From positions 1 to 61,805 of IMG/VR virus record IMGVR_UViG_3300030099_004395: a stretch of DNA of 61,805 bases, one strand, 5' to 3'. The notes beneath the pieces are model-generated. The model worked only from the letters and a program-made list of their open reading frames with translations, was not told where the DNA came from and ran no database searches. A program made the translations under genes and the position numbers. This DNA is from a virus (Duplodnaviria; Caudoviricetes). Positions 9,736 through 59,738 of this stretch are shown here, piece after piece. The first letter of the stretch is position 1, and every line of letters starts with the position of its first letter.

Positions 9736-11533
9736 ACAAGATAGAAACCCTGGTAAGATAGAGTATGGACCTGCTGGTTATAGAGATCCTAGAAAAATTT
9801 CTAAAAACTATAACGCGTTAGAGTTTAGTATGCCTGACTTAGACAACATAATAGATAATAAAGCTGATGGTGAACAAACTACAGAAGATCTAAGTAATAA
9901 AACAGGAACTGAAAAGGAAGGTGTAGTAACTAAAGGTGAAACTGTAAAACCTGCTAATGCTGACTTAATGAAGAAAGTTGAAAACAGCGAGAAGGTTCAA
10001 TCTTTCATAGATGAAGGAAAAAGTTTAAAAGGTGAAAGGAAAAGAGGTAGACAACTTAAAAGAGGTATTAATACTGCTATTAGACAATTTGAAAGAGACA
10101 GTAGAAAAAGAGGTTTAAGCCCAGAAAGAGAAGAAAAGCTTCAAGCAGCTAAAGATGAAAGAGATAGATTAAGAGGATTAGAAACTGCTAAGAAGGAGGA
10201 AGATAAGATGATCAAAAAAGAAAACAAAGAAACAGAAAAAGAAATTAAGAAAGCTAACAAAAATAAAATTAAAAAAGCACAAGCTGAGTTTGATAAAATG
10301 CAAGCAGAAAAATACGGAATCGTTGATGGTGAATTTAAAGAAACTAAAGTCGATGATTATGAAGAACTTAAACATGATCTATATGAACAAGATCAAGACA
10401 GAAGGTGGGGAGTAGGAACAAAAATGTATAAAGATATGAGACCTAAAAACTTAATGAACAAAGGTAATAGAATGCCTGAAATAGATAGCGAAGAAACTAG
10501 ACCTGCTATGTACAATCAAGGTCGACCTATGAACTCTGGTATATTAGAGAATAATCCTAATATAATGCAACCAGATAATAAAGTGCCATTTTCACAGCAT
10601 CAGACTAATGAGAAGTTTAGCAATATAGCTAGTGCTTCACCTGATCCGTTTCAAGCTTCTAATACACCAAACAAGCCTATGGGTGGATTAGATCAAACAT
10701 TTAGCCAAGGTCAAATGGCGATGTACGGTATGGGTCCTGAGTTTAATCCTAAATTAAAAGCTGCATCAGAAGCGGGTGATTTAGATGACAATCCAAATTT
10801 TAAAGCAAAAGTAGACGCTGCACCAGCTAGTCACTACCATATTAGTAAAGGTAAATATGCTAATGATACTAGAGTAAATAAAGCGAACTATGATGCAACT
10901 GAAAGAGATGACGCTGCTCATATTGATTATTTAAAGAAAGATATCGATTACGATGCTAAGCATAACAAAAGCGATATAGACATGACAGCTGATGAGAAGC
11001 ATATATCTAAATTAGCTGGAGACATGAAGTATGATAAAGAACATCATTCACCTGCTTATGGTAAACACGGTGCTGCTTGGAAAAGAAAGACAAATGAAGG
11101 CACTAATAAAAGAGGTCAAAAGGTCACTATTGAACAAACTAAAAGAGAGAAAGCTGAAAAACCAACTGACTACTCAGATAACTTTACTATGAACTTTGGT
11201 GACAAAGAAGGTAAGGGTAAGCCAGCAAAAGATAATACAGTTACTTTTACTAGAGAAACTAAGAGAGGCACTAAAGTTAAGAGCGCTGAGGGCGGTACTC
11301 GTAAGTCAAAGAGATTATTGAGTAAGTTCAAAAGGCAAACAGCTAGAGGAACAAGAGAAAAAGCTCAATATGATCAACCAGGTAGCTTTAAAGGTTTAGT
11401 TAGTAAGCTACAGAAAAAAGGTAAATCAAAATCAGTTGCTACTAAAATTGCTGGTAAAATAGCTAATATAAAAAGAAAAGGTGGAGGTAAAGGACCTACA
11501 GCAAAACAGAAAGCAAGAATGCGTAAGAACTAA
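9725..11533 (+). CDS. modular charged protein with PxMY and YDQPG linkers, putative internal head polyprotein
   Basis: 602 aa; GPAGY, RPAMY, MAMY, SPAY and YDQPG separate compositionally distinct segments. Confidence 0.7.
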   Translation: MAYKQDRNPGKIEYGPAGYRDPRKISKNYNALEFSMPDLDNIIDNKADGEQTTEDLSNKTGTEKEGVVTKGETVKPANADLMKKVENSEKVQSFIDEGKSLKGERKRGRQLKRGINTAIRQFERDSRKRGLSPEREEKLQAAKDERDRLRGLETAKKEEDKMIKKENKETEKEIKKANKNKIKKAQAEFDKMQAEKYGIVDGEFKETKVDDYEELKHDLYEQDQDRRWGVGTKMYKDMRPKNLMNKGNRMPEIDSEETRPAMYNQGRPMNSGILENNPNIMQPDNKVPFSQHQTNEKFSNIASASPDPFQASNTPNKPMGGLDQTFSQGQMAMYGMGPEFNPKLKAASEAGDLDDNPNFKAKVDAAPASHYHISKGKYANDTRVNKANYDATERDDAAHIDYLKKDIDYDAKHNKSDIDMTADEKHISKLAGDMKYDKEHHSPAYGKHGAAWKRKTNEGTNKRGQKVTIEQTKREKAEKPTDYSDNFTMNFGDKEGKGKPAKDNTVTFTRETKRGTKVKSAEGGTRKSKRLLSKFKRQTARGTREKAQYDQPGSFKGLVSKLQKKGKSKSVATKIAGKIANIKRKGGGKGPTAKQKARMRKN

Positions 11534-11588
11534 TATAATTATGTAATTATATTAATACAAATATGTTAAACAAATTAAAAAAATAGTT

Positions 11589-11756
11589 ATGCCAAGTTAC
11601 GGAGAATACCAAGCACCAGCAGGTAAAAAATTAAAGTGTGGTTGCAAACCACTAGGAACACGTAAAATGATTTCAAGAAATCCATTTATTACTACTACGT
11701 TAAGATTTGATAATCCACCATACGGTGGCAATGGAGCGTTGAACGCTAATAAGTAA
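11589..11756 (+). CDS. small basic protein (55 aa, MPSYGEYQAPAG...)
   Basis: ORF read manually; TAATG coupling to next gene. Confidence 0.65.
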   Translation: MPSYGEYQAPAGKKLKCGCKPLGTRKMISRNPFITTTLRFDNPPYGGNGALNANK

Positions 11757-11920
11757 TGGGACTTGATGATCTAAAGTTATATTGTTTAAATATAACTTCT
11801 TTCACAATCGCTAGCTTCGATTGGTTAGAACCAGTATTAAAAATATTACTACTAATTGTAACTATAGGGTATACAGTACACAAATGGTGGGTAATGAAAA
11901 ATAAAAACAATGGCAATTAG
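11756..11920 (+). CDS. putative holin (54 aa)
   Basis: hydrophobic VLKILLLIVTIGYTV with basic tail; upstream of amidase. Confidence 0.55.
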   Translation: MGLDDLKLYCLNITSFTIASFDWLEPVLKILLLIVTIGYTVHKWWVMKNKNNGN

Positions 11921-12164
11921 AAAAGACTTACTAAGAATGCAGAACAATATTAAAAGGGTTAAAAATCCTTTTGGCCCTGCAGCTTTAGGCGAAGATGAAA
12001 AATTAAAGCCAGTTCCAGATAATAGAAACTTATTAGAAAAAGGATTGGATTATATTACCGGCGGTGATAGCAGAACTAAGATGGATATCGAAGGAAAAAC
12101 AGTAGAATATACTGACAGCAAGGGTAATGCTTATGATAAAGATAAAAATAGAATAATTAAGTGA
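11910..12164 (+). CDS. hypothetical protein (FGPAAL motif)
   Basis: ORF track. Confidence 0.65.
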   Translation: MAIRKDLLRMQNNIKRVKNPFGPAALGEDEKLKPVPDNRNLLEKGLDYITGGDSRTKMDIEGKTVEYTDSKGNAYDKDKNRIIK

Positions 12165-12574
12165 GACAAATAAATAAAATTATTGTACATTGCTCTGCAA
12201 CAAGAGAAGGAGAAAATTTTGATGTAGCTGAGATACGCAAATGGCACGTAGAAGGTCGTGGCTGGAGCGATATTGGTTACCATTTTTATATCGACCTATA
12301 TGGAGAAATACACAAAGGTAGAGATATAGATAAAATCGGAGCTCACTGCAAAGGAAACAATCGTGGTTCAATAGGCATATGCTATTGTGGTGGCGTTGAG
12401 GCAGATGGTAAGACTCCGAAAGATACTAGAACATACGAGCAAAAGGTTGCTCTACTTGCGGTACTTAGAACTTTAAAAGCTATGTATCCTAACGCAGTAA
12501 TACACTCACATAAGGATTTTGCTAATAAAGCATGTCCATCATTTGATGCTACTAAAGAATATGAAAATCTCTGA
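12161..12574 (+). CDS. endolysin, N-acetylmuramoyl-L-alanine amidase (T7 lysozyme-like)
   Basis: HCSAT, DIGYHF, GAHC and H...KACPSFD zinc-amidase motifs. Confidence 0.92.
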   Translation: MRQINKIIVHCSATREGENFDVAEIRKWHVEGRGWSDIGYHFYIDLYGEIHKGRDIDKIGAHCKGNNRGSIGICYCGGVEADGKTPKDTRTYEQKVALLAVLRTLKAMYPNAVIHSHKDFANKACPSFDATKEYENL

Positions 12575-13152: not shown

Positions 13153-13674
13153 ATGGCAACTAGAAAAGTTTGTTTACCAAAAGCTAAAATAGCCAGCATG
13201 AGCAAAGCTGAGAAAGACAAAGTTGTAAATGCTAAAAAGGCCGCTGCTAATCAAGGTAAGAAAAAAAGATCTAGGAAATCAAATGTAAAAGGCGCTAGAC
13301 CTAAAAACGCTACATTAAGAGATTGGTTTAAAAAAGAAAACTGGACAAACGTAGAAACAGGCGAAGAATGTGGAGCTCCAACAATGTATGGCCCTGCAAA
13401 AAGATTAAAATTTGGTAGAAAGAAAAAAAGAAAGAAACAAGTTAAGTTATCTGTAGGTAGAGGAGAGAAGTTATCTGTAAAAAGAGGTAGCGGTCTAACT
13501 GCTAAAGGTAGAAGAAAATACAACAAAGCAACTGGTGGTAATTTAAAAGCACCAGTAACTGGTAAAGTAAAGCCTGGTAGTAAGGCTGCAAAACGTAGAA
13601 AGTCGTTTTGTGCTAGATCAAGAAGTTGGACAGGTCCTAGAGGTAAAGCTGCTAGGAAAAGATGGAAATGTTAA
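13153..13674 (+). CDS. two-domain basic Cys/Trp protein
   Basis: N-domain CLP...LRDWFKKENW...CG; linker APTMYGPAK; C-domain GLTAKG...RRKSFCAR...RWKC. Confidence 0.75.
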   Translation: MATRKVCLPKAKIASMSKAEKDKVVNAKKAAANQGKKKRSRKSNVKGARPKNATLRDWFKKENWTNVETGEECGAPTMYGPAKRLKFGRKKKRKKQVKLSVGRGEKLSVKRGSGLTAKGRRKYNKATGGNLKAPVTGKVKPGSKAAKRRKSFCARSRSWTGPRGKAARKRWKC

Positions 13675-36071: not shown

Positions 36072-37973
36072 ATGGCAACTATTATAGAAGTAGAATATTA
36101 TAATTCGGTTTGGTTAAAAAGAATACTAACACCAGAAACTAAATATCAAATAACACCAGACACTGTTACAGGTCCTACTTTTACTCCTAGTAACATACTT
36201 AAAGGTGGTGCAGGCACATCTCCAAGGCGTGGTGTTTTTCCATTGTCAAATGTATATGCTAATCCACAAACTCAAAATATGACTGTTGCTGTTCCAGGTA
36301 ATACTGATACTGTAATATCAAATGGCACTTCTAATACTAAAGAAAATTTTTACTTAGAAGACATGTATATTAAAGGAGGCTTTAACAATACTTCTATGGA
36401 TTTTGGTGCTAGAGCTTTCTTAGATAGAGAAGAGCCAATACAACAAGATAGATTTGCTGCTTTAATATATTCAGGAGTGTTTAATTCTAGAACAGGCGTA
36501 AATAGAACTAATGAGTTTCCTGTAGGTGAACAAATAACTAAATCAGCTAATCCAGATAATGGTAGTATTCAAAAGCTTTATGCTGAAGAAAACAACCTAC
36601 TGGTATTACAAGAAAATAAATGTAATAGAGCTTTAATAGATAAAGACGCTATATTCTCTGCAGAAGGTGGAGGTACGGTAACTACTTCAAAAGCTGTAAT
36701 AGGTCAGATAGTTCCTTACGCAGGAGAATATGGAATTAGTAGAAATCCAGAGAGCTTTGCTATATATGGTTTTAGAAAATATTTTAGCGATAGAAATAGG
36801 TCAGCTATATTAAGATTATCTCATGATGGTATTACTGAAATATCTGAGTACGGTATGCGTGATTGGTTTAGAGACAACTTAGATCCTTTAAATGATAACA
36901 TAACAAATACTTTTAAATTTACTTTAGGCAAATCAAAATGGAATAAAGATGAAAGTTGGATATGTGTAAGTAATGAAACAGACAGATTGACAATGGAATT
37001 ACCTTTAGGATCTGCACTATACTTACAGGATGCTACTCTTGGTGAGGTGTTTGTTGGTTATGTACAAGAAATAATAGATCTTAACGATGGTAGTTCTTAT
37101 CCGATACAAATTAAAATAGATAGAATTATAACTTTAAATAGTGCTATAGGAATAGAGAAATCTTATGTTTTAAACTATAATAGAAGTTATGTTAAAGGTG
37201 GTTATGATATTTACAACAAGCAGTATGTAGTATCACTACAGTATAATGGTAATGCTGGTAATGTAAGTGAAGATAACACTTTTTATACTTTAGGTTTTGA
37301 TGAAACAACTAAAGGTTGGACTAGCTTTTATACTTATAGATATGAAGAGCTAGGTAGCTTGAAAGGTAATGTGTACACTACATTTAGAAAACCTATTGAT
37401 GCTCCTAATTCTACTTCTACTAGTAACAGTGGCTTATGGTCGCAATACAGCGATCAAGTAAATAGAGGTAATTTTTACGGTGAAGATAATCCTTCAACTG
37501 TCACGTTTGTAGCTAATCCTAATCCATCTATACAAAAGAACTTTTTAGCTATAGACTATGAAGGTAATAGCGGTTGGAAGGTTGTTAGCATGACTTCTGA
37601 TGAAACAGGCTTTGATAAAGAATGGTCAGGTGGTGTACCGTTGAGTACTTGGAAACTATATTTTGATACTACAAATTTAATAAGAAGTTATTATGAAGGA
37701 CAGTACGATGGACTTGGCAATACAGGATCAGCCGCTAGTCCTCTTAATCCACCGTTATTACACGCTGGGTTTGATAGAAAAGAAAACAGATATGTAGCTA
37801 ACTTAATTAATAATAGTTCAGCAATGCCTGGTGAAGTGCAATTTGGAGATCAAATGAGTGGTATAAAAGGTTTTTATTCAGAAGTAAAAATGAGTACAGA
37901 TACTACTACAGATCCAGGTGGTTTTAAAGAACTATACACAGTAGGTTTAAGATACAGTGTATCATCAATGTAA
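36072..37973 (+). CDS. tail stabilization (nozzle-like) protein, C-terminal part
   Basis: GSIQKL, GEYGISRNPESFA, GITEISEYGMRDWF, GWTSFY beta-propeller-type motifs. Confidence 0.7.
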   Translation: MATIIEVEYYNSVWLKRILTPETKYQITPDTVTGPTFTPSNILKGGAGTSPRRGVFPLSNVYANPQTQNMTVAVPGNTDTVISNGTSNTKENFYLEDMYIKGGFNNTSMDFGARAFLDREEPIQQDRFAALIYSGVFNSRTGVNRTNEFPVGEQITKSANPDNGSIQKLYAEENNLLVLQENKCNRALIDKDAIFSAEGGGTVTTSKAVIGQIVPYAGEYGISRNPESFAIYGFRKYFSDRNRSAILRLSHDGITEISEYGMRDWFRDNLDPLNDNITNTFKFTLGKSKWNKDESWICVSNETDRLTMELPLGSALYLQDATLGEVFVGYVQEIIDLNDGSSYPIQIKIDRIITLNSAIGIEKSYVLNYNRSYVKGGYDIYNKQYVVSLQYNGNAGNVSEDNTFYTLGFDETTKGWTSFYTYRYEELGSLKGNVYTTFRKPIDAPNSTSTSNSGLWSQYSDQVNRGNFYGEDNPSTVTFVANPNPSIQKNFLAIDYEGNSGWKVVSMTSDETGFDKEWSGGVPLSTWKLYFDTTNLIRSYYEGQYDGLGNTGSAASPLNPPLLHAGFDRKENRYVANLINNSSAMPGEVQFGDQMSGIKGFYSEVKMSTDTTTDPGGFKELYTVGLRYSVSSM

Positions 37974-37979
37974 TTAAAT

Positions 37980-38381
37980 ATGAATATAAGAAAATTAACA
38001 GAATCTGATTATGAGGTTCTAGAAGCATGGTGGAAAGCATGGAAGTGGCCACCAATTGAAAAAGACTTTTTACCAGACAATGGAACTGGTGGATTTGTTA
38101 TAGAAAAACAAGGCACTATGATAGTTGCTGGATTTGTTTATATAACAAACTCTAAGGCAGTTTTACTCGAATGGATTATATCTAATCCTGAATATAGAGA
38201 AGATGACAGAGACATGGCTATAACATGTCTTATAAGCACGATTGAAAAGATAATTAAAGAATGGGGATATAAATATATATTTAGTATAGGTAGAACAAAA
38301 GCATTAATAGATAAACACAAAGATTTAGGGTATCATGTAGATGATACGCCATCACATGAAATAACAAAAATTTTAAATTAA
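37980..38381 (+). CDS. GNAT-fold acetyltransferase-like protein
   Basis: MNIRKLTESD...EWIISNPEYR...KDLGY GNAT-like pattern. Confidence 0.55.
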   Translation: MNIRKLTESDYEVLEAWWKAWKWPPIEKDFLPDNGTGGFVIEKQGTMIVAGFVYITNSKAVLLEWIISNPEYREDDRDMAITCLISTIEKIIKEWGYKYIFSIGRTKALIDKHKDLGYHVDDTPSHEITKILN

Positions 38382-38386
38382 TAATT

Positions 38387-39097
38387 ATGGCAGTAGCAAC
38401 AGGAGTATTAATAGCAGGAGGTGTCGCAGCGGCAGCAGGTGCGACAAGTAGTATCATTGCTGCAAACAAAGCTAAGAATGCTAGAGACGCTCAGTTAAAT
38501 CAAGCAAACATATTACAACAACAGCTAGATGATCTTGAAGCATCAAGACCTAAGTTTAAAAATCCTTATGAGAATCTAACTAACTCGTTTGAAAACTTAA
38601 ATAATCCCTACGCTAATTTAACTGTATCTACTGAAGCTGCCAGGATACAGGCTGAGGAAGCAGATATAGCTTTAGCTAATAGCTTAGATCTAATGCAGGA
38701 ACAAGGTATGGGTGCTGCTGGTGCTACAGCTTTAGCTCAAATGGCTTTGAAAAGTAAAAGAGGTATTGCTTCTACAATTAATGCTCAAGAAACTCAAAAT
38801 AAAAAGATGGCTGCTCAAGGTCAAGCAAACGTAGATAAACTAAAAGCAGAAGGCCAACAAAAGTTAGACTTTATGAAAGCTAAAGGTGACGCTATGGAAC
38901 AGCAAGACGCTATTAGTTGGCATCAACAAAAATTAGATAGAACAGCTGGTTTAATGGATAACGCTAGACAACAAGCAGCAGATAATGACGCAGCTAGAAA
39001 CGCAGCTATAGTTGGTATAGGAACTTCAATAGCTCAAGGAGCAGGTATAATAGCTGGAGGATTTGGTCCTAAATCAAATTCAACACCAAATACATAG
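38387..39097 (+). CDS. internal virion or ejection protein
   Basis: A/G-rich hydrophobic termini with Q/A coiled coil. Confidence 0.65.
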   Translation: MAVATGVLIAGGVAAAAGATSSIIAANKAKNARDAQLNQANILQQQLDDLEASRPKFKNPYENLTNSFENLNNPYANLTVSTEAARIQAEEADIALANSLDLMQEQGMGAAGATALAQMALKSKRGIASTINAQETQNKKMAAQGQANVDKLKAEGQQKLDFMKAKGDAMEQQDAISWHQQKLDRTAGLMDNARQQAADNDAARNAAIVGIGTSIAQGAGIIAGGFGPKSNSTPNT

Positions 39098-39099
39098 AT

Positions 39100-40749
39100 A
39101 TGGCATATAACAGACCCCAAAGAATTATAGATAAAAGTTTTGACACTTTTGTAAGAGCTACTAAGGAGTTTAATTCTAAAGTAACTAATAGCATGCAAGG
39201 TATAGCTAATAGTGTTATGAAACAGAAGAGAGATCAAGATGCTTTGACAGAAAAACAAGATGATCTAGAAAGCGAAATGCTAGACAAAGCTAACTCGTTT
39301 GGTAGTACTGGTGATGCTATGCTTGATGAAAATATTGTAGGTTTTTGGAATGATAAGGTAGAAGAATACTTTAGAATAAAAAACGCAATGCAAAGAGGTG
39401 ATATAAGTAGGAGAGAAGGTAACTTAGCATTAAAAAGAATAGAAGGTTTACCAGCTCAATTTAAATCTCAAGCAAATTATTTAGCAAATCAAGTATCATT
39501 ATATAACGATGTTTCTGGTTTAAAAACAGGAGCACCGGGATCTATAAGTTCTGTTAGCTCACAAGAAAGTCAACAAGTTCTTAGAACAATGTCTGAAGGC
39601 GGTAATGTTCAAATAGTAGAACGTGGTGGTGTATTATACTATTATACTCCAGATACTGTAGATGAGAATGGAAACGTCATTAAAAAAGGAGCAATGTTAA
39701 ATGGTTCTGAACTAGTTGCTAATCAAGCTATAAATAAAAATCTATTTGAAACAATACAAGATATATCACCAATGGAAGAACAGTTGTTTAATAAAAGTTT
39801 AAACACTGACGATATAGTAGATGAGACTTTTATACAAATGAAAGTAGAAGAGAAAGATGGTAAAATATACAAAAGTAGAGTGATTAAAGATCCTGAAGCA
39901 GCGCAAACGGCAATACTAGAAAGTCCAATGATGAATGCTATTATCAACGATAAAAGCATGATGACAACTTATTTTCAAGATGTTATTCCTGACGCAGGAG
40001 AAGATGGTTATTCTCTATCTGAGTTTTATAACAGCGATGAAGGTAAAGCTATGCGTGATGCTGGTATTACAGAAGAAGAATTTGTAAATAGTCGATGGGG
40101 TGAAATGGTAGGCGAACCTGATGATCCTAAAAACGAAGCGCTTGCATCTGGTCAAGAACAAGCTGCTAGAAAATGGATTGCTAATGATACATTAAATAAG
40201 TTTACTCCAGGTTTAAATAGTATAAAAGGTAATTACTTTAGTATAGAAAACAAACCTAAAAAAGAAAAATCTAGTGGTGATGATAAAAATAAACCATATG
40301 AATATGGTAAAGGAGTTGGAGATCAAGTACAAACAATGGGTGGTGCTTATGAAGATACTATTGAAATTGCTGATGAGCTATACGCTGATCCAAATACTCC
40401 ACCAACTACTCAACAAATATACGAGTCATTAATAAATAATCCAGCTATAGACGAAACAGATAACGATTTTTATATGGGTGATGGTACTCCAGATGGTGGT
40501 AAATTAGGTGTATTATATCACGATAACGTTCCTGTATCTATGGGTAAGTTTAAAACTAAAAAGGCTTATGAAGATTATGTTTTTAGACAAATAGGTATGA
40601 AGCCAGAAACTATAGGACATTTTAGAAAAGAAAATCCACCACCAAAATATCAACTTACTGAGGAAGATAAAAAGAAAATAGAAGCTGCTAAACCAGGAGA
40701 GTCAATAACTTTAGGTAACGGAAAAACAATTAGAAAAACCAAAAAATAA
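39100..40749 (+). CDS. internal virion or ejection protein
   Basis: 549 aa between ejection-type genes. Confidence 0.6.
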   Translation: MAYNRPQRIIDKSFDTFVRATKEFNSKVTNSMQGIANSVMKQKRDQDALTEKQDDLESEMLDKANSFGSTGDAMLDENIVGFWNDKVEEYFRIKNAMQRGDISRREGNLALKRIEGLPAQFKSQANYLANQVSLYNDVSGLKTGAPGSISSVSSQESQQVLRTMSEGGNVQIVERGGVLYYYTPDTVDENGNVIKKGAMLNGSELVANQAINKNLFETIQDISPMEEQLFNKSLNTDDIVDETFIQMKVEEKDGKIYKSRVIKDPEAAQTAILESPMMNAIINDKSMMTTYFQDVIPDAGEDGYSLSEFYNSDEGKAMRDAGITEEEFVNSRWGEMVGEPDDPKNEALASGQEQAARKWIANDTLNKFTPGLNSIKGNYFSIENKPKKEKSSGDDKNKPYEYGKGVGDQVQTMGGAYEDTIEIADELYADPNTPPTTQQIYESLINNPAIDETDNDFYMGDGTPDGGKLGVLYHDNVPVSMGKFKTKKAYEDYVFRQIGMKPETIGHFRKENPPPKYQLTEEDKKKIEAAKPGESITLGNGKTIRKTKK

Positions 40750-40753: not shown

Positions 40754-43700
40754 ATGGGTAACGGAAACGATTGGGTGCCAGAAGGATTTGAATTAGTAGA
40801 AGATGAACCTACTAATGCCTCTTTTGAAATACCTGAAGGCTTTGAACTAGTAGAAGAAGAAGAAAAAGAAAAACCTATTACCGAAGGGGTAGCTCCAGCA
40901 GCTACTCAAGGCGAGCCAGAAGTGTCAGCAGAAGATATGGTGGCCAATGATATTAAAAATTTAGAAACAACCTTGTATGATGAGAAAGTAGTTGCCGCTG
41001 CCAATGCTGATGCAGCTGAGTTAGAAGCTGCTCAAAAAGCAGAGGAAGAATATGAAGGAAGTGCTAGAACAAAAAGAGTAAGAGATGAAAAACTACAAGA
41101 TTCTAAACAATACCAAAAAGCTTTAAAAGATGGAGGGTATGTAGACAAATCATTTGACTATAAGCATGTTGAAATAACTCAACCTGATGGAAGTATTAGA
41201 ACATACCCTTATTCTGAGGTAGCTGCTAACTATGGAGACGTAGATGAATATGTTAAAAGATGGCAAGGTAAAGCTAGAGTAGTAGATAACACACCTCAAG
41301 AAGTACAAGAAGAACAAGGCTTTGTTGATGGCAAAGATCAAGTAAGTAAAGAAACTCAAGCTAGAATAGAAAAAGAATCTGCTGATAGAAAAAAGAGAAT
41401 AGAAGAATTACAAAAGAAAAAAACATCAAGAGAAAATCAACTAAACAGTTTAGAAGCTAAGAAAAAATACAACGAAGAATATTTAGCCTCTAAAATACTA
41501 GATAAAGAAATTTCTAGAATAGACGAAACCTCTGACTATTTTAAAGAACACTTAGGTAAAAATATATATGAAAACTTAAGTGAAGCTATAGACGCAGAGA
41601 GCATGTTTGGTTTTGATGAAGACGAATTAATAGATATAATAGATAACAATAAAGATGAAGCTAAAAAATATTTAGATAAGTTTTTTAAAGGCGATAAAGA
41701 GTTTTACGAAAAATGGAAAAACTATTATAATAGTGATGGAGAAGATTATGATTTTAATTGGACTAAAAATTATTTAGGTGATAAGCTAGTAAAACAAAAT
41801 TTAAGAGACGCAAAAGGTAAGTATAATGAAATGTTTCATTATGAAAGAGAACACACTCCTGAACAGCGAAGAAGAATTAATGAGTTTCAATATGAGAATT
41901 TACTAGGTGTAGATGAAGTAGCAGAAGCTAGAAAAGCCCACAATGAAGAGTCACAAAGATTACAAGAGATAGGACAAGACTGGGTTGTTGATGAAAACAG
42001 AGGGCAAAAAATATACAGTAGAAAAGTAAATAAAGTTAGAGATAATTTTGGTTTATTACAGCGAGAAGATATAGCTGTAATGCATGATCTTTATGGTAAT
42101 GATACAGAAGGTAAGTACGCGGAAGGACAGTATGGTGTAGATACTCCCCTGTCAAGAGATGAGTTAAAAGCTTTGTCATTAAAAGCAGAAGAAAAAATTC
42201 AACAAACAAATACTCGTTTAGCTGAGGATTTTGCAACATACCAAAGGCAAGCTGACGAGTTAGAAGCAGACTTCGCACCTTATAGAGATAATATAAATGC
42301 GTCATTAGAAGTTATAAAAGAACTTGAAGCTAAAGGTATAAGTTCTACTTCTTCTAAAGAAGATATTGAAGCGTATAACGCTGCTATACAAAACGTGAAA
42401 GATCAACAAGCAGAAATGCTAACTTCAGGTCTTTATCAAAGAGAAGAAGATTTAGTTCAAACATATTCAGATCTAAAAGTTGCTAATGATAGATTAATGG
42501 CTCAAGCAGATTTAACTGGTGATTTAAGTTTAGCTGTAGATGCTTCGTTAAAAGATTATAGTAACATACACCGTATGGGATTACAACTTGAAATAGGATT
42601 TTTAGGTAGTGGCGCTATGATGCTAGGTAGTATTACAAAAGGTGTTGGTGATGCTATAGCTTGGGGTACTGATGTATTTACTGATGCAAGCGACGAAGAA
42701 GTTCAAGATCTTTACGATCAAGCTGACAAAATAAAAGGTGTAGCTACAAACTACAATGCTAGATTACAAAATGCTCTAAACAACGAGTATACTAGAAACA
42801 TTACAGTAGATGACGCTAGTTGGAGTACGTTAGATACTTATATGGGTCAAATGTTTGCTAACAACTCTCCTTCTATATTGACAACTTTAATGACTTTACC
42901 AATGGGTGGTCTTGGTGGTTTAAGTTCTGGAGCTGCTCGAGGTACATTAGCTTATAGAGCAGCAGCAATGAGAGCACAAATGCAGGCTGCAAGACTTTCA
43001 CAAGGTTTATTTTTTATGCAAGGCTACGGTGGTAAAATGGCGGACTTAGAAATTACTACATTAAACGCAGAGCAAAAAATAGCTGACTTAAATAAAATGA
43101 TTGCAGATTCTACTACAGAATACGAAAAGAAAGGTTATCAGCAACAACTAAATGAATTAAACAGACAAGTTAGTATACCACAGTGGCAAAGAACCACGTC
43201 AGCTATGATAGGTGGTTTATCTGATATGTACATGGAAAAGCTTGGATCTTTAAGCTATGTTAATAAGTTTACTAGAATAGCACCAATATCAGGAAGTAGT
43301 ACGTTTAAAAAAATGATGTATAGTGGTTTAAACACAGGTTTAAACTTAAGCAAGGAGATTGGTGAAGAAGTTGGTGTACAAATAATTAATAACGCTTCTG
43401 ACAATATATTTTTAGGTGAAGACAAAAGTTTATTAGACGGTATAAATGAAGACTTCTTAGTTAATACTGCTTTTACGTCATTAGCTATACAAGGCCCGGG
43501 TATGGGTGGTAATGCTTATAATATTATTAGAGATGAGGTTACTAACCAAGTTGATAGAAAAAAGACAATACAAAGACGTAACGAGTTATTTAGAATAGAA
43601 AATGAACTAGCTAATAATAGAACTAAATTAACTAAAAAAGAACAAAGAAAATTAGTTGATAGAAAAAGAGCTATTATAAGAGCAGAAGCGATGCAAGACG

Positions 43701-46700
43701 TTATGACAACTCAAAAGCTAGCTCGTATGAGTACGTCAGATAAAAAAGCTTTATTTGAGTTAAATAGAAAACGTAGAAAAGCTTACAACAATATAAGAGC
43801 AGAAGCAGCTAAAGGTTCTAGTAAAACTTCAAGAGATAGAAAAGATAGATTAGTATCTGAATATAAAAAGATAGATGAGCAAAGAAATAATTTGTTAAGT
43901 CAGGAAGCTAGAGCAAGAGAAGAAGCTTCAAAAGATAATTTTGATCCAGCACAACATGCATACAACTTAGGTTTAAATGATTTTTATACTGATGTTGTAG
44001 CTATGAATCAAGAGATGAAAGGTAATAAGTTAATACGTTTTAACTCTGAAAACAAACCTAACATAGAAAGTTTAACAAACCAATACGGTAAGGAAACTGC
44101 TGAAGCTATAATGAAATCTTACGAAGGTGGTAACAACGCTGCTAACGTTCCAGGTACCAATGATATTATTTTATTTCAAGATAATATAGATGTCAACATG
44201 CAGAATACTAAAATGCAAACTGAATCTGAAATAGCAGCTGTAGCACCTATGCATGAGTTATTACATATTCAAAATAGAAATGCTGGTGTTGTTAAAGATG
44301 GTGTTGTTGTTGAGCAAGCTAAAGTAGCTATTGAGCAACTTGATGCTTCGATGAAAACTAACTTAGACATTGGAAAAATTACTCAAGAACAATACGATAA
44401 CTTTGTTAAAAGAAAAGAAGGATATACTACTAAAGATGGTGTCAATGTTGAGGAGTTATTAAATTTATATGGAGACTTTGTAAACATTGGAGTGTTAACA
44501 CCTAGCAGTTTAAATGGTATGTATGGTATTAAAAATACTTTATCTGCGTTAGTTAATAAGTTTAATCCTACAAATCAAGCTTGGTTGTTTCCTATGCAGA
44601 CAGGTAAAGATGTATTTGGTTACTTACAAAGTTTTAGAAAGCAAGCTGAAAAAGGTAAAGTTGCTATAGATCAAGAGGAAGAAAAGAAAGAAGATGGTAT
44701 AGTAGAATCTTCTAACCTACAAGAAATGGCAAAAGATTTTGATATGTCTAAGCCATCTGGTAGAACTAGATTTTTAAATGAAAACTTAGCTAAAGATAAA
44801 GATGGTAATTTTGTAACTGATATTACCAAATCTAAACTAGGTCAAGATATAGGTGGTATAGTAGAAACTACTACTAGAAGACTTTATGATAAAGTACCTG
44901 CTGATCTCAGACAAGGCGTAACAAGAGATGACTTTAAAAATGATTTAACTACTTTAGCTAGTACACTAATTCAACAAGAGTTTGATCCTAGTAAACAAGA
45001 CTTAGATAAGTTCTTAAGTAATAGGTTAAATTTAAGAGCAAACAAGCTAGCAACAGATACATTTGGTCAAGAGTTTACAGATGATATTACAGAAGCAAGA
45101 GATATAGCTGCAGAAGAAACAGCTGATATAGTTAAAGATGATAATAAAAAAGTAAATCAATCTCAAAGAGGTATTAGACTAAAGAACAGATTACAGACAA
45201 ATGAAGAACAAGCTGAAACATTAAAGCAAGCTGTAGATCAAATAAAATCTGAAATAAATAATTTACCTATAGATCAATTAAATTTTAAAACACTAAAAGA
45301 TTTAGCTACAGATAAAGTTCAAGAACTTTTTGGTATAGTACCTAAACCAGGTAACCTAACTAAAGGTGATGTTGCTAACGCTCAAAACTTTATTAATAAA
45401 AATGTAGAAGCATTAATGACTATGCTACCTGAAGGAGCAACTCCAAGTGGTACTTCTACAGGTGTTCAAAAAGTTTTATTAGACAAGCTATATAGAAAAA
45501 CAGATAGAGCTGCAATGGCTAAAACAGGTAGTAAAGCTGGTTTACCTGTGCAACAAAAACGTAATGATATAACTCAAGCTGAGTTTAAAGAGATATTTGG
45601 TATAACACCAGCAGGAACACCTAATGTTAGTGATCGTAATACTAGTGCAAGGATAAAAGCTTTAGTTGCTCAGACAGAACGTATGTTAACTAATCAAGAG
45701 GTTAGAGCAGCGTTAGAAAAAGAAGGTCGAGATATTCCACAAGCTTTAGCAGAAGGAAAAGCTGAAGTAATGTTTTCTATAAGTTTAAATAATATAACAC
45801 CAGAGCAAAGAGAACTATATGATAAACTCTCTAATGCTAGATCTATAAACGATGTAGCTAAGATATTAAACTTAGGAGATGTTACGGTAAATGAAAAAAA
45901 CAGAGTAGCTAAGCAAATGGAAATATTAAAAGCTATAGTAGATCACAAGCTAAGTGTTAATGTTTTTAAAGCTGCTATGCCTGCTTCATCAGGTGCTGTT
46001 AGAATGAGAGTTGGTAAAGTACCAACATTAGATAAGTACTTAGCTGACAATAATATTAAAGGTGTACCCGGTGATGTTTGGTATAAGTTAACTAATGGTA
46101 AATTTGCTAAAGGTGTTTATAAGGGAAAAAATGCTAAAGGAGTAAAACAATTTGGACCTCCCGTAGATAGCGATGGTAATCCATTAACTAATTTAGTTGC
46201 TCAAAGAGGGAGGTTGTATTATGGTGTTACAGATCCAGCTTATATAGAAGCACTTGAAAAAACTAGAAATGATACTCAAAAACCAAAAAGAATAAGGGTT
46301 AAAGGTGTTATAACTCAAAAAGAGTTTAATGCTAATAGAGCTCAAAGCGATATGAACATGGATATACTAGAAGATGTAGCATTACAACTAGGTAATGCTG
46401 TTAAAGCTGGTATGAATCCTGCTATTGCCGCTTTGATTATAGCTCAAGGATATCAAGCTACAGCTGGTCTTATTAAGATAGCTGCTAGATTTGATAATGT
46501 TTCTGATGTTATGGAGTACGGTAAATCTAAGAAACAAAGAACAGGTGAGAAGTATAGAGAAGAACACAACCCACCCGCTTCTGTAATAGGTGCTACATTG
46601 ATAGGAGCTATTGTAAACAAAAACGTAGAAGAGATATTTCCATTTATTAGAAAGAATTATTCTCAAACACAATTGTCTAAAGCTGCTGATGAGATGTTAG

Positions 46701-49678
46701 ACATGGCTAAGCTAGATGCTACTATACCTACTGGTTATAGTATATTTAATAATCCTATAATAAGGTTAGCTGCCGCAGGGATAAACACTAATGTTATAAC
46801 AAATTTAATTAGTGGTAAGTCAATGATGGCTGATTATGGTTTAGATGTACCTAATAATTTAAAGAATAATACAGCTGTTGTAGAGTTACAAAACAAATTA
46901 GTAGCAGAAGTAGAAAATGGTAAGTCAATAGAAGATGCTAAAGCTGAGCTAGATGCTTTCTTACCTTTAGCCCCTGACATGCAAGAGTCTGCTAATGAAA
47001 ATGTTCCTTTACTTAATGAATCTAAAGTGTTAAATGTTAATGACAACATGACACCTGATGAATTACTTAGTAAAGCAGCTACTATAGATGAAGCACTACG
47101 TTTAGCTAGAAAAGATAAAAAGAAAATTAAAAAGATCCGAGTGTTTGATTTTGACGACACGTTAGCTAGAACTAATAGTATAGTTTATTATACTAAAAAA
47201 GATGGATCTCAAGGTGAATTAACAGCTGAACAATTTGCTAGTGATGGAGCTAGGCTTGTACAAGAAGGAGCTGTAATGGATTTTTCAGATTTTAATATAG
47301 TAAGAGATGGGTCTCGTGGCCCATTGTTTAAGGTAGCTCAAACAATAAGAGATGCTAGAGGTAATGAAGATCTTTATGTATTAACAGCTAGAGCACCACA
47401 AGCTCAACAAGCTATATACGAGTTTTTAAAAGCTGAAGGTTTAGAGTTTAAAATAGAAAACATAGTTGGCTTAGGTAATTCATCTGGTGAGGCAAAAGCT
47501 AATTGGATAATAGATAAAGCAGCAGAAGGTTTTAATGATTTTTATTTTGCAGACGACGCTTATCAAAACGTTAAAGCTGTTCAAGATGCTTTAAGTGTTA
47601 TTGATGTTAAGTCAAAAGTTCAACAAGCTATTTTAAATGAAAGTAAAAATCTAAACAATGACTTTAATAAAATACTAGAAGAAAGATCTGGTATAGGTAG
47701 AGAAAAAACATATTCTAGATCTAAGGCTCAAGTTGTAGGTAAAAGAGTTGGTGGTTTTAAATTTTTTATACCTTACTCAGCAGAAGACTTTCAAGGTCTT
47801 ATTTATAAAACATTGTCTAAAGGTAAGCTTGGTGAAGAACAAATGGCTTGGTATAAAAAGAACTTGTTAGATCCATATGCTAGAGCTATGGAAAACTTGT
47901 CTAAAGCTAGACTACAATTAATGCAAGACTTTAATACTTTAAAAAAGAAACTAAATGTACCTGCTAACTTAAAAAAGATTAATGAGTCTGGTTTTACAAA
48001 CGAACAAGCTGTAAGAGTTTACTTATGGAATGAGACTGGTAAAGATGTACCTGGTTTATCTCAAAAAGATTTAAAAGAATTATTAGATATAGTAAATAAT
48101 AATCCTACTTTAAAAACTTTTGCAGATCAAATACTTAAAATAACTAAAGGTGATGGTTATTCTAACCCTGGTGAAAGCTGGTTAGCAGGTACTATAACAA
48201 CAGATCTTATAGATGTTATAAACGATGTTAAGAGACCTAAGTATCTAGCTGAATGGCAACAAAATTCTGATATAATATTTAGTGAACAGAACTTAAATAA
48301 GTTAGAAGCTATATATGGACCTAAGTATAGAGAAGCAATGGAGAACATGCTTAGTAGAATGAGGTCGGGTAAAAATAGATCTTTCACTGGTAGTAGACTA
48401 AGCAATAGAGTATTAGATTATATTAATGCTTCAAATGGAGCTATAATGTTTTTTAATATGAGATCTGCTATACTTCAAACTATATCTAGTGTAAACTTTA
48501 TGAATTGGAGTTTTAATAATCCTTTAAAAGCAGGCCAAGCTTTTGCTAATCAACCTCAGTACTGGAAAGACTTTATGGAGTTAATGAACTCTGACTTTCT
48601 TAAAGACAGACGTAATGGACTACGTATAAATATATCTGAGAGTGAAATAGCTGATGCTGCTAAAACTTCAGGTAATAAAGCCAAAGCTGTTTTAAATTAT
48701 ATACTTGAAAAAGGTTTCTTACCTACACAGTTTGCTGATAGCTTTGCAATAGCTACAGGTGGTGCTACATTTTATCGTAACAGAATAAATGATTTAATGA
48801 AGAACGAAGGCATGTCTGAATCTGAAGCTAAGGTAATAGCAATGAGAGAGTTTAGAGAGATATCAGAAGAGTCTCAACAGTCTAGTAGACCTGATAAAAT
48901 TTCACAACAACAATCAAGTGATTTAGGTAGATTAATATTAATGTTTGCTAACACGCCAATGCAATATGCTCGTATACAAAAAAGAGCATTTCAAGATTTA
49001 ATAAACGGTAGAGGAGATGCTAAGTCTAATGTAAGTAAAATAATATACTACAGTGTTGTTCAAAACTTAATATTTAATGCGTTGCAACAAGCTTTATTTG
49101 CTATAGGTTTTGGCGATGATGATGAAGAGGATAAAGAAAAAGAAAAGTATTTTGACACTGCAAATGGTATGGCTGATTCGTTCTTAAGAGGTTTAGGTAT
49201 AGCTGGAGCATCTGTATCTGTTGTTAAAAACTTCTTGTTAGATATATACGAAAGATCTGGTAGATCAAGACCAGAATATGTAGATAGTGTTTGGAAGTTA
49301 ATGCAGTTCTCTCCACCTATAAGCTCAAAGATATCTAAAATTAGACAAGCGTTATGGCAGTTTAATAGCAAGAAAAGAAGAGAACAGATATCAGAGATGG
49401 GACCTTTTAATATAGACAACCCAGCTTATGAAGCTAGCGCTAAAGTTATATCAGCTACAACAAACGTACCTTTAGATAGAGTTTTACAAAAGTATGATAA
49501 TATTAGTCAAGCTATGGCAGAAGAAACAGAGTGGTGGCAAACTGTAGCGATGTTAGCTGGTTGGCCATCTTGGCAGTTAGGAGTTGAAGATCAAGACACT
49601 GTTAAGACTACTGGAAAGTCAAAGTCAAAAGTTAAAACTAGAAAAAGAAAAATAAGAAAACGTAAACCAAAACGTTAG
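40754..49678 (+). CDS. giant multidomain (polyvalent) ejection protein
   Basis: 2974 aa; HELLH zincin at 44252; sigma region-2-like FDPSK at 44981; EEHNPP at 46559; HAD motifs DFDDT, LTAR and FADD at 47147-47557. Confidence 0.8.
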   Translation: MGNGNDWVPEGFELVEDEPTNASFEIPEGFELVEEEEKEKPITEGVAPAATQGEPEVSAEDMVANDIKNLETTLYDEKVVAAANADAAELEAAQKAEEEYEGSARTKRVRDEKLQDSKQYQKALKDGGYVDKSFDYKHVEITQPDGSIRTYPYSEVAANYGDVDEYVKRWQGKARVVDNTPQEVQEEQGFVDGKDQVSKETQARIEKESADRKKRIEELQKKKTSRENQLNSLEAKKKYNEEYLASKILDKEISRIDETSDYFKEHLGKNIYENLSEAIDAESMFGFDEDELIDIIDNNKDEAKKYLDKFFKGDKEFYEKWKNYYNSDGEDYDFNWTKNYLGDKLVKQNLRDAKGKYNEMFHYEREHTPEQRRRINEFQYENLLGVDEVAEARKAHNEESQRLQEIGQDWVVDENRGQKIYSRKVNKVRDNFGLLQREDIAVMHDLYGNDTEGKYAEGQYGVDTPLSRDELKALSLKAEEKIQQTNTRLAEDFATYQRQADELEADFAPYRDNINASLEVIKELEAKGISSTSSKEDIEAYNAAIQNVKDQQAEMLTSGLYQREEDLVQTYSDLKVANDRLMAQADLTGDLSLAVDASLKDYSNIHRMGLQLEIGFLGSGAMMLGSITKGVGDAIAWGTDVFTDASDEEVQDLYDQADKIKGVATNYNARLQNALNNEYTRNITVDDASWSTLDTYMGQMFANNSPSILTTLMTLPMGGLGGLSSGAARGTLAYRAAAMRAQMQAARLSQGLFFMQGYGGKMADLEITTLNAEQKIADLNKMIADSTTEYEKKGYQQQLNELNRQVSIPQWQRTTSAMIGGLSDMYMEKLGSLSYVNKFTRIAPISGSSTFKKMMYSGLNTGLNLSKEIGEEVGVQIINNASDNIFLGEDKSLLDGINEDFLVNTAFTSLAIQGPGMGGNAYNIIRDEVTNQVDRKKTIQRRNELFRIENELANNRTKLTKKEQRKLVDRKRAIIRAEAMQDVMTTQKLARMSTSDKKALFELNRKRRKAYNNIRAEAAKGSSKTSRDRKDRLVSEYKKIDEQRNNLLSQEARAREEASKDNFDPAQHAYNLGLNDFYTDVVAMNQEMKGNKLIRFNSENKPNIESLTNQYGKETAEAIMKSYEGGNNAANVPGTNDIILFQDNIDVNMQNTKMQTESEIAAVAPMHELLHIQNRNAGVVKDGVVVEQAKVAIEQLDASMKTNLDIGKITQEQYDNFVKRKEGYTTKDGVNVEELLNLYGDFVNIGVLTPSSLNGMYGIKNTLSALVNKFNPTNQAWLFPMQTGKDVFGYLQSFRKQAEKGKVAIDQEEEKKEDGIVESSNLQEMAKDFDMSKPSGRTRFLNENLAKDKDGNFVTDITKSKLGQDIGGIVETTTRRLYDKVPADLRQGVTRDDFKNDLTTLASTLIQQEFDPSKQDLDKFLSNRLNLRANKLATDTFGQEFTDDITEARDIAAEETADIVKDDNKKVNQSQRGIRLKNRLQTNEEQAETLKQAVDQIKSEINNLPIDQLNFKTLKDLATDKVQELFGIVPKPGNLTKGDVANAQNFINKNVEALMTMLPEGATPSGTSTGVQKVLLDKLYRKTDRAAMAKTGSKAGLPVQQKRNDITQAEFKEIFGITPAGTPNVSDRNTSARIKALVAQTERMLTNQEVRAALEKEGRDIPQALAEGKAEVMFSISLNNITPEQRELYDKLSNARSINDVAKILNLGDVTVNEKNRVAKQMEILKAIVDHKLSVNVFKAAMPASSGAVRMRVGKVPTLDKYLADNNIKGVPGDVWYKLTNGKFAKGVYKGKNAKGVKQFGPPVDSDGNPLTNLVAQRGRLYYGVTDPAYIEALEKTRNDTQKPKRIRVKGVITQKEFNANRAQSDMNMDILEDVALQLGNAVKAGMNPAIAALIIAQGYQATAGLIKIAARFDNVSDVMEYGKSKKQRTGEKYREEHNPPASVIGATLIGAIVNKNVEEIFPFIRKNYSQTQLSKAADEMLDMAKLDATIPTGYSIFNNPIIRLAAAGINTNVITNLISGKSMMADYGLDVPNNLKNNTAVVELQNKLVAEVENGKSIEDAKAELDAFLPLAPDMQESANENVPLLNESKVLNVNDNMTPDELLSKAATIDEALRLARKDKKKIKKIRVFDFDDTLARTNSIVYYTKKDGSQGELTAEQFASDGARLVQEGAVMDFSDFNIVRDGSRGPLFKVAQTIRDARGNEDLYVLTARAPQAQQAIYEFLKAEGLEFKIENIVGLGNSSGEAKANWIIDKAAEGFNDFYFADDAYQNVKAVQDALSVIDVKSKVQQAILNESKNLNNDFNKILEERSGIGREKTYSRSKAQVVGKRVGGFKFFIPYSAEDFQGLIYKTLSKGKLGEEQMAWYKKNLLDPYARAMENLSKARLQLMQDFNTLKKKLNVPANLKKINESGFTNEQAVRVYLWNETGKDVPGLSQKDLKELLDIVNNNPTLKTFADQILKITKGDGYSNPGESWLAGTITTDLIDVINDVKRPKYLAEWQQNSDIIFSEQNLNKLEAIYGPKYREAMENMLSRMRSGKNRSFTGSRLSNRVLDYINASNGAIMFFNMRSAILQTISSVNFMNWSFNNPLKAGQAFANQPQYWKDFMELMNSDFLKDRRNGLRINISESEIADAAKTSGNKAKAVLNYILEKGFLPTQFADSFAIATGGATFYRNRINDLMKNEGMSESEAKVIAMREFREISEESQQSSRPDKISQQQSSDLGRLILMFANTPMQYARIQKRAFQDLINGRGDAKSNVSKIIYYSVVQNLIFNALQQALFAIGFGDDDEEDKEKEKYFDTANGMADSFLRGLGIAGASVSVVKNFLLDIYERSGRSRPEYVDSVWKLMQFSPPISSKISKIRQALWQFNSKKRREQISEMGPFNIDNPAYEASAKVISATTNVPLDRVLQKYDNISQAMAEETEWWQTVAMLAGWPSWQLGVEDQDTVKTTGKSKSKVKTRKRKIRKRKPKR

Positions 49679-58988: not shown

Positions 58989-59738
58989 TCACAGATAATC
59001 AAGTACTTGCGAGTGATCTACGTTTGCTATTAATTTTTCTACAGCTTGCTTTTTTAACTCTGAAATACGCACATAAGCTGAAACACCTTTAATTTCTAAA
59101 GCTGTTGCTATTTCATTAGCAGACCATTTAGGACCGTCAAGACCATAGCTTTTGCTTAATACAAACATTTCGTTCCATTCAAGGTGTTTGTTAAGTAAAC
59201 TTAATATATAAGCATTAAGTAACGTTTCATTGTAAGGATCTGATTTATCAGGTATTTGATAAACCATATCTTCATCATCTTGCTTAGCATCATATGATAA
59301 AAATATAGAATTAAAAAACATTCTAACCATTTTTTCATCTTTAGTACTACGCATTTCATTTAACCTATGCTCAGGTATTCGCATTGTGCCTCTATTTATA
59401 TCAATAGCTCTACGTATTCCACCTCTTATTCTTTTAGCTAAAAATGACTTTAAAGTTTTTTCTACGTCTTCAGATACAAATAATTTTTCTCTATCTATTT
59501 TATCTACAGCTTTACACAATTGTAAACTACCTTCTTGTATTATATCCATAATAGACATAACACCTGAAGCTTCTTGACTAGTAGCAAACTTTCTACCTAT
59601 ATTTTCTACTAATGGTAAAAATATAACTTTAAGTTCTTCAGGTTTGTAATCGATAAAGTTTTTAACTGGTATTTTAGCAATAGATAACTTTACATCTTCT
59701 TTATATCTAATATAGTTTTTTACATTATATTTTTTCAT
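58989..59738 (-). CDS. phage sigma70-family RNA polymerase sigma factor
   Basis: LPLVENIGRKF, DIIQEG..QL..AVDK, MRIPEH, C-terminal HTH ANEIA...KKQAVEKL. Confidence 0.82.
   Translation of the reverse strand: MKKYNVKNYIRYKEDVKLSIAKIPVKNFIDYKPEELKVIFLPLVENIGRKFATSQEASGVMSIMDIIQEGSLQLCKAVDKIDREKLFVSEDVEKTLKSFLAKRIRGGIRRAIDINRGTMRIPEHRLNEMRSTKDEKMVRMFFNSIFLSYDAKQDDEDMVYQIPDKSDPYNETLLNAYILSLLNKHLEWNEMFVLSKSYGLDGPKWSANEIATALEIKGVSAYVRISELKKQAVEKLIANVDHSQVLDYL

Follow-up and report, generated by a model that had tools for sequence, protein, structure and literature searches.

The IMG/VR record IMGVR_UViG_3300030099_004395, from a virus of the Caudoviricetes (Duplodnaviria), was analysed over its whole length of 61,805 nucleotides, here called the window. 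The record is complete or nearly so (61,805 b, CheckV 96%). Its plus strand carries a structural block of the podophage type, in the order terminase, portal, scaffold-like gene, capsid, tail, small open reading frames (ORFs) and a giant ORF, P0001, in which several unrelated effector-type domains share one polypeptide: zincin-like, sigma-2-like, an alpha/beta module and a HAD phosphatase (Table 1). The linkers of this protein carry a short Ser-centred peptide that recurs at four places, is conserved among the homologues and lies where modules are exchanged.

An earlier reading of the window, made from its letters alone (the original prediction), had taken the protein for a self-cleaving polyprotein in which a zincin with the motif HELLH and a downstream EE would cut at four similar short motifs. 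All the motifs that it named are present, where it had placed them, in the ORF at 40754-49678. We regard the giant ORF as belonging to the polyvalent or internal virion protein kind, and its product is probably carried as cargo in the virion of a marine podophage, uncultured and akin to phages of Flavobacteriia.

Table 1. Features of the giant ORF and its upstream neighbours, in order of position in the window (models and alignments are described in the text).
Feature	Positions	Strand	Residues	Basis or remarks
Muzzle-like tail gene, 633 aa	36072..37973	+		crAss_MUZ_C (PF25729), E 3.8e-9
Context block: muzzle-like gene, then ORFs of 133, 236 and 549 aa directly 5' of the giant ORF	36072..40749	+
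Giant ORF P0001, 2974 aa	40754..49678	+		Modular polyvalent protein, probable cargo
Variable N-terminal region	40754..43930	+	1-1059	Acidic, coiled-coil and Gly/Ala-rich stretches
Twice-repeated peptide [VI]PEGFELVE	40775..40858	+	8-17 and 26-35
Zincin-like metallopeptidase domain	43931..44641	+	1060-1296	Strand-helix order in model 1; alignment A4
HELLH	44252..44266	+	H1167, E1168, H1171	Helix aa 1164-1176
EE, candidate third zinc ligand	44450..44455	+	E1233, E1234	Helix aa 1232-1244
Linker 1	44642..44731	+	1297-1326	pLDDT < 50 throughout; holds site 1
Site 1, IVESSNL	44699-44719	+	1316	Homologue columns (aa 1319-1322) K54 / F28, L17 / S62 / K47, of 68 filled rows
Sigma-factor region-2-like helical domain	44741..45070	+	1330-1439	VIA-align of predicted model
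Second subdomain of sigma-like module	45071..45754	+	1440-1667	Conserved
Linker 2	45755..45787	+	1668-1678	pLDDT < 50 throughout; holds site 2
Site 2, VMFSISL	45767-45787	+	1672	Columns (aa 1673-1675) M60, K21 / F79 / S78, of 89 filled rows
Module 3, alpha/beta	45788..47011	+	1679-2086	pLDDT ~90
Site A, LNESKVLN	47012..47035	+	2087-2094	Columns (aa 2087-2093) L91 x x S92 K75 V114 L76, of 119
HAD phosphatase, T4 Pnkp 3'-phosphatase type	47123..47632	+	2124-2293	VIA-align; phrog_415, E 1e-4
Site B, LNESKNLN	47633..47656	+	2294-2301	Columns [IFV] K74 [F49 E27 L23] S111 K88 x L90, of 119
Conserved C-terminal helical domain	47657..49603	+	2302-2950	Covered in 117-118/119 listed homologues to aa 2925

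The recurrent linker peptide

Taken from the window only, the evidence for a recurrent motif is weak and suggestive, and the weight comes from the homologues. The formula of the original prediction, hydrophobic-x-[EF]-S-x-x-L, occurs four times in the giant protein against 0.41 times in shuffles and is confined to the giant ORF within the window, this pattern having been defined post hoc from the same sites; an octamer pair identical at 7 of 8 positions, as LNESKVLN and LNESKNLN are, arises in 10% of 300 shuffles. A whole-length search gave 1662 matches among 7995 scored candidates, 120 of which were listed, and all counts out of 119 homologues refer to the matches listed. A scan of IMG/VR added 80 loci, and the larger homologue set numbers 199.

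All four sites align to one recurrent peptide in 119-199 giant relatives, with the consensus [KM]-[FL]-S-K. The Ser of site B is kept in 111/119 listed homologues and in 179/199 of the larger set, and that of site A in 92/119 (117/199 in the larger alignment, where it is ambiguous). At site 2 the Phe is kept in 79 and the Ser in 78 of the 89 filled rows, and F1674 and S1675 are found in at least 90% of alignment A1; at site 1 the Ser is kept in 62 of the 68 filled rows. Alignment of homologues thus bears out the proposed recurrence, with conserved linkers and the Ser kept at all four sites, but it replaces the proposed formula: in place of hydrophobic-x-[EF]-S-x-x-L, the family shows [KM]-[FL]-S-K around an invariant Ser.

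The peptide is strongly enriched in these proteins. In 120 of them there are 177 copies of [KM][FL]SK where shuffles give 34.6, and among the 4-mers present at least three times per protein KFSK ranks first. A later, separately drawn set of 148 representatives, collected with the zincin profile, holds the relaxed form [KMR][FLMY]S[KR] 201 times against 68.8 in shuffles; FSK is there the second most over-represented 3-mer, behind QQA, and as both of these come from site B, part of the enrichment is shared ancestry of that one site. The density of [KM][FL]S[KR] is 0.46 per 1000 aa in the giants (106 in 231,181 aa) and 0.11 per 1000 aa in other plus-strand ORFs of the same loci (14 in 123,716 aa), a difference of about four times, and within the window this form is found in the giant ORF only. 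The number of strict copies outside the C-terminal domain varies among the 199 homologues, with none in 57, one in 57, two in 35, three in 31, four in 13, five in 3 and six in 3. The two LNESK copies of the window differ in their Ser codon family (TCT and AGT) and in their Leu codons, which indicates that their likeness is maintained at the protein level.

Two AlphaFold models were made with family alignments, model 1 covering residues 1040-2130 (predicted local distance difference test, pLDDT, 77.6) and model 2 residues 2060-2974 (pLDDT 62.2). Sites 1, 2 and B lie in coil between confident domains and no site lies inside a confident domain core; at site B pLDDT is below 50 at residues 2293-2298, where the last HAD strand has just ended. 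The least linker-like of the four is site A, which lies where the end of a helix passes into a loop (pLDDT ~60). Motifs buried in folded domains would have undone the original prediction, and the predicted models instead place the sites between domains.

Exchange of modules at the linkers was assessed from the 305 internal endpoints of BLAST high-scoring segment pairs between the giant protein and the 199 homologues. Of these breakpoints 103 (34%) fall within 25 residues of a site, as compared with 7% expected, so that exchange at the linkers, which the original prediction had proposed to look for, is also found. Site 2 accounts for 51 of them, site A for 37, site 1 for 11 and site B for 4. 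Other breakpoints, at residues 450-525, 1100-1160 and 1875-1950, are without a motif in the window. A cassette of ~145 residues is present in 7/199 homologues at three different linkers: at site 2 (P0046, P0060), site B (P0101, P0029, P0110, P0108) and site A (L024). It begins just behind an xFS-type peptide in 5/7, and a second such peptide follows the cassette where the downstream context shows one. The cassette sequence reads NWKTDEAGN ... TGTGDA.KV..TVYNG ... LYTTLM (P0046 aa 1065-1264, P0101 aa 2122-2263, L024 aa 2125-2304).

Domains of the giant protein and their setting

The domain claims of the original prediction are supported to different degrees: the HAD assignment by a Z score of 13.3, the sigma fold without support from sequence, and the zincin by a near-invariant signature with weak links to known families. 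HExxH is expected 0.001 times per shuffle. In alignment A4 (71 sequences, 14% mean identity) E1168 and H1171 never vary, and at least 90% of the sequences have H1167 and E1234; E1234, which is invariant in alignment A1, is a candidate zinc ligand. Among the 199 homologues exactly one HExxH is found in 176 and two in 1, EExxH stands in its place in 16, and the other six include five fragments. In model 1, strands at residues 1093-1096, 1129-1131 and 1138-1141 precede the HExxH helix, and the Glu lies on a later helix. Family matches in the 71 members of A4 were all below curated thresholds, those that appeared being to zinc peptidases (Peptidase_M78 in 5, best E 0.0091; Reprolysin_3 in 4; Peptidase_M91 in 2; DUF6782 in 2), and the top two profile hits in the PDB were snapalysin-type proteases (1c7k_A and 4hx3_A, E 0.11-0.12) over the strand region and HExxH. 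An Atlas search with the zincin part gave unnamed clusters and one lead, LPD23 on 18% of cluster members. With the zincin profile, 1777 cluster representatives (clusters at 50% identity) are matched at E 0.001 or better, and the only stand-alone short relatives found were five fragments.

A strict copy of the linker motif lies 120-200 residues behind HExxH in 80/194 homologues, against 8% expected, the scan having covered 100-200 residues with no copy at 100-119. In the later set the corresponding figure is 22/135 against 6% expected. The clade with EExxH, in the form EELFH, includes P0038, P0070, P0071, P0080, P0082, P0088, P0090, P0091, P0095, P0098, P0101, P0109, P0112, L040 and L046. It keeps the Glu, the second His and the downstream EE, and its KFSK motifs are the most canonical of all; its metal site has been either altered or inactivated.

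As had been proposed, the sigma-like fold (residues 1330-1439) stands between the first two motifs, at residues 1316 and 1672. VIA-align matched this part of the model to SigB (8x6g_H, Z 8.7, root mean square deviation (rmsd) 2.9 over 89 aa), to 7d7d_F, a chain of the T4 late-transcription complex (Z 8.3), and to pro-sigmaK (8vjl_B, Z 7.5), in a range where, for helical bundles, a Z below ~13 may reflect a common arrangement. About half of the best 50 VIA rows are sigma factors, all of them on residues 1330-1439, and none of these 50 is a region-4 match on residues 1440-1667. No Sigma70 family was found at E up to 10 in the window segment or in five homologous segments. Judged from the predicted model, the identity of residues 1330-1439 as a sigma region 2 stands at about even odds. 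The second subdomain is found in more homologues than the sigma-like part. A separate ORF of 249 residues on the minus strand (58989-59738) has a weak Sigma70_r2 match (E 7e-4) and a region-2-like sequence; no similarity between it and the sigma-like segment was seen with hhalign or BLASTP.

The two LNESKxLN copies flank the HAD fold, again as proposed (sites A and B at residues 2087 and 2294, fold at 2124-2294). In the predicted model its closest fold is the phosphatase domain of Pnkp: VIA-align gave 5uj0_B with Z 13.3 (rmsd 2.5, 127 of 142 aa), 4xrp_A with Z 12.7 and 1ltq_A with Z 12.4, while other HAD enzymes score 11.2 or less. HAD motifs I-IV (DxDxT, Thr, Lys and DD) are invariant in sets of 65 and 34 sequences (D2132, D2134, T2136, T2211, K2248 or K2255, D2267, D2268). 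A search for a kinase domain gave no family hit, and the one Walker-A-like string falls at a place without conservation in the homologue consensus.

Module 3 gave no family or Atlas match, and none from the fold search of the multi-domain model. At a strand end it carries REEHNPPAS (46556-46582, aa 1935-1943), in which E1937, H1938 and A1942 are invariant and E1936, P1941 and S1943 are kept in at least 90%; this is possibly the catalytic site of an enzyme. The C-terminal domain of ~650 residues is helical, of mixed confidence and rich in invariant residues, and as the constant part of the family we infer that it serves packaging or ejection. Residues ~1950-2925 are common to at least 113/119 listed homologues, rising to 117-118/119 from residue 2100, and the regions 5' of this shared part are progressively replaced, coverage falling to ~44/119 over residues 525-1100 and to no more than 10/119 over residues 1-450. 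The double PEGFE motif is N-terminal in 5/199 homologues, including the distant P0091 and P0119, and could be a docking or packaging signal.

The listed homologues are all unnamed metagenomic proteins of ~1800-3500 aa, and each of the 80 related IMG/VR loci has one giant ORF of 2300-3860 aa unless a contig end cuts it. The exception is L066, in which the giant gene is broken inside the zincin region, just before HExxH, into pieces at 4302-7190 and 7238-12313. A natural split gene was considered and set aside, the break not being at a motif and the upstream piece having an out-of-frame-looking tail; it is probably a frameshift or assembly error. The whole giant protein found no match by tblastn in 50,697 phage records, only coiled-coil or low-complexity noise in the PDB with phmmer and a full-length profile, and nothing useful in Pfam, which was run on it and on 16 homologues and in which no LPD or MPTase model matched. 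BFVD gave one real relative, from an uncultured virus (E 5.6e-17), and weak rows for internal virion proteins, virion RNA polymerase (vRNAP) and LPD. Foldseek against pdb returned helical repeats only for the multi-domain model 1 and, for the multi-domain model 2, no match at E 0.001 or better, with weak HAD phosphatase rows at probability 0.9-0.99.

The structural block comprises a terminase-sized ORF, a P22-like portal, a scaffold-like ORF, a capsid protein and a 1505-aa tail protein. The nearest records to the capsid protein are an uncultured podovirus (49%), Maribacter phage Panino (44%), Flavobacterium elemoviruses (41%) and Cellulophaga phages. Packaging of the giant protein in the virion is suggested by its synteny behind the muzzle and tail genes; a 3668-aa protein of elemovirus MT497078.1 bears the label 'structural protein', itself without detectable sequence similarity to the giant protein. 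In the giant proteins of the elemovirus and Manatee Spring relatives by capsid, HExxH is present, KFSK is absent and similarity is undetectable, so the linker motif is not universal among these phages. A phage grouped by its capsid protein with elemoviruses and Cellulophaga podophages here carries the C-terminal domain of a crassvirus muzzle, and by its sequence the muzzle-like gene links these marine podophages to crassvirus tail design.

Elsewhere in the window a GroEL-like chaperonin ORF (6881-8440, plus strand; Cpn60_TCP1, E 7e-57) lies near a 95-aa ORF at 6561-6848, and GroEL and GroES genes are also present in relatives by capsid protein. Very basic Lys/Ala-rich low-complexity ORFs stand 5' of the structural block at 4812-5513, 8681-9292, 9725-11533 and 13153-13674 (plus strand), one of them with DUF6321.

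Proposed processing and its alternatives

The reading that we tentatively prefer, and to which we give somewhat less than an even chance, is that the embedded zincin cuts the linkers as processing sites and so releases the modules. It is drawn from the Ser-centred linker peptide, the cassettes that carry a copy of it, the protease signature in the same chain, the copy behind the protease, and precedent. The recurrent peptides would be processing sites that join exchangeable modules, and the zincin, once folded, would cut linkers within its own chain or between copies. Cutting might take place inside the capsid, though refolding in the host would more likely come first, and it would free the sigma-like, module 3 and phosphatase modules from the C-terminal domain.

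Several observations weigh against processing. The window copies VESS, MFSI, NESK and NESK are degenerate forms, common to the closest clade, and the 57 of 199 homologues noted above are without a strict motif outside the C-terminal domain. Site A, at a helix end and with its Val kept in 114/119 listed homologues, may be structural, and the major breakpoint at residues 1875-1950, inside module 3, carries no motif. Covariation between sites goes in the expected direction and is not significant: for the P1 residue of sites A and B, 2.8 of 7 pairs were concerted against 0.1 opposite (median p 0.25), and for the +1 residue of sites 2 and B, 4.0 against 1.9 of 10 pairs (median p 0.69). The zincin assignment is made from the motif, the predicted strand-helix order and sub-threshold hits, and fold searches with the 1091-residue multi-domain model gave nothing but helical-bundle noise for the zincin part. 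The 16/199 homologues with EExxH keep canonical KFSK sets. That the linkers are cut, by this enzyme and at these times, we infer from the motif, its conservation, its linker position and the exchange of modules, which are themselves observed. Finally, N4 vRNAP has such a peptidase domain and is packaged unprocessed, according to the part of Iyer et al. 2017 (PMC5512222) available to us.

The unprocessed N4 protein also bears on the strongest alternative, which we think doubtful though deserving of attention: that the peptide is an uncut linear motif, serving as a docking or packaging contact (with portal, capsid interior or DNA), a threading hinge or a site of Ser modification, the protein acting as one chain. 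The motif is specific to these proteins, basic and Ser-centred; conservation is strong at the Val-Leu of site A and at the C-terminal neighbour of site B, as in a structural contact; motifs persist in the EExxH clade; and no linker is confidently placed in model 1. Such a motif leaves unexplained why cassettes tend to bring a copy of the border motif with them at three places, and why HExxH...E is near-invariant in nearly all members. Were the motif uncut, the strong conservation of such a linear motif, and its restriction to these proteins, would still call for an explanation.

It is improbable that the motif has no function of its own, as a recombination leftover of cassettes sharing linker sequence or as conserved domain edges that look alike by chance. 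The post hoc pattern in the window and the frequency of octamer pairs in shuffles would agree with this, as would the non-significant covariation, the part of the enrichment that stems from shared ancestry of site B and the 57/199 homologues without a strict copy. Against it, four non-homologous positions share the peptide, each with the high retention of Ser given above, the codons differ between the copies, the 12-15 nucleotides shared are too short for homologous exchange, and the enrichment repeats in the later, separately drawn set.

Slightly less probable again is cutting of the linkers by another enzyme, whether a protease of the host or a different domain of the giant protein, with the zincin acting on host targets or otherwise. 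Here the retention of canonical motifs by the EExxH clade would be accounted for, and many invariant polar residues are available in module 3 and the C-terminal domain. HFS-type self-cleavage is driven by Ser, and would suit a Ser that is invariant behind a position varying among F, L, E and Q; the sites, lying in disordered linkers, are unlike those of fold-dependent self-cleavage. At E up to 0.001 the 62 ORFs of the window gave no other protease family, searches of the giant protein and of 16 homologues likewise gave none, and the absence of the motif from other virion genes speaks against a general maturation protease. A prohead protease of the T4 type, which cuts after L/I-x-E, was rejected, as it fits three window sites only, the homologues have F, L or Q, and no such protease was found in the 62 ORFs.

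If processing by the embedded zincin is correct, a fuller proposal can be framed, which on the present sequences and models we consider unlikely as a whole: that the family, very large and uncultured, consists of self-processing polyproteins with the readable code [KM]-[FL]-S-K, whose cassettes the zincin frees after delivery, and that in this phage a minimal sigma-2-like factor so released redirects the host RNA polymerase at the very start of infection and the Pnkp-like, end-healing phosphatase counters RNA-cutting defences of the host. The family in any case gives a concrete candidate processing site, conserved across hundreds of divergent proteins and placed exactly where cassettes swap. 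Should the cuts be real, the sequence could reveal the effector borders of giant phage proteins that now lack annotation, which number in the thousands; a phage without a virion RNA polymerase would have, in an injected sigma-like domain, a novel means of starting transcription; and the family would be a possible natural scaffold for the delivery of protein cargo.

Relation to known systems

The kind of protein is already known, in polyvalent and internal virion proteins with a zincin; the family itself is without a Pfam model or a named relative. In the open-access literature searched, and in the portions of it that were accessible, the recurrent linker code, cassette exchange at it and a sigma-like passenger were not found. 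For polyvalent proteins, processing by a zincin-like MPTase has been proposed, the core of which has a sheet of three strands, a helix with HExxH and one with the Glu (Iyer et al. 2017, PMC5512222, in its accessible part). The giant phage protein described here resembles them in joining unrelated enzymatic and regulatory domains to an HExxH...E peptidase domain, with the same core order in model 1. It differs in having no Pfam LPD or MPTase match, only the LPD23 lead from the Atlas, and in its recurrent linker peptide and cassette exchange; the accessible text of PMC5512222 defines no cleavage motif, and the word 'sigma' is absent from that paper.

Podoviral internal virion proteins also host domains that act in the cytoplasm, as in T7 gp16 (IVP-D), N4 gp50 and H66 gp60 (Hardies et al. 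2016, PMC4819975, in its accessible part). With these the giant gene shares its place behind tail genes and two smaller helical ORFs, and its protein the fusion of a constant helical part to domains that would act inside the cell. Unlike the proteins described there, it has no lysozyme domain, its constant part is C-terminal and its passengers are bounded by a repeated peptide. Comparison of alignment A3 with T7 gp16 by hhalign gave a probability of 0.4%, a weak test with a single-sequence template, and hhalign showed no similarity to residues 2100-3500 of N4 gp50 (its C-terminal part), either for the C-terminal domain or for the zincin-like domain.

The position of the giant gene is that of the internal virion proteins of T7 (PMC4819975) and of the cargo genes of crassviruses, in which the virion stores and ejects large proteins whose genes lie 3' of the muzzle gene (Bayfield et al. 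2023, PMC10172136; both papers as far as accessible). The upstream neighbour that carries the muzzle C-terminal domain extends the likeness to crassviruses. The phage nevertheless groups by capsid protein with elemoviruses and Cellulophaga podophages, no DxDGD RNA polymerase motif was found in the giant protein, and cleavage or proteolysis is not mentioned for crAss cargo in the accessible text of PMC10172136.

The T4 polynucleotide kinase/phosphatase is the best structural match of the HAD module (5uj0_B), which also has the PHROG match and all the catalytic motifs. Unlike the free early enzyme of T4, the HAD module is embedded in a probable virion protein, and no kinase domain was found with it.

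In MARTX-type toxins and picornavirus-type polyproteins an internal protease cuts conserved linkers between domains. There is no homology between these and the giant protein, the protease is of another class, and cleavage is here only proposed. The likeness would lie in the architecture, with cassettes set between short sites, a protease in the same chain and cassettes shuffled among relatives; if the proposal is true, the family would be the phage equivalent of multi-effector autoprocessing toxins, its effectors swapped at the cleavage sites.

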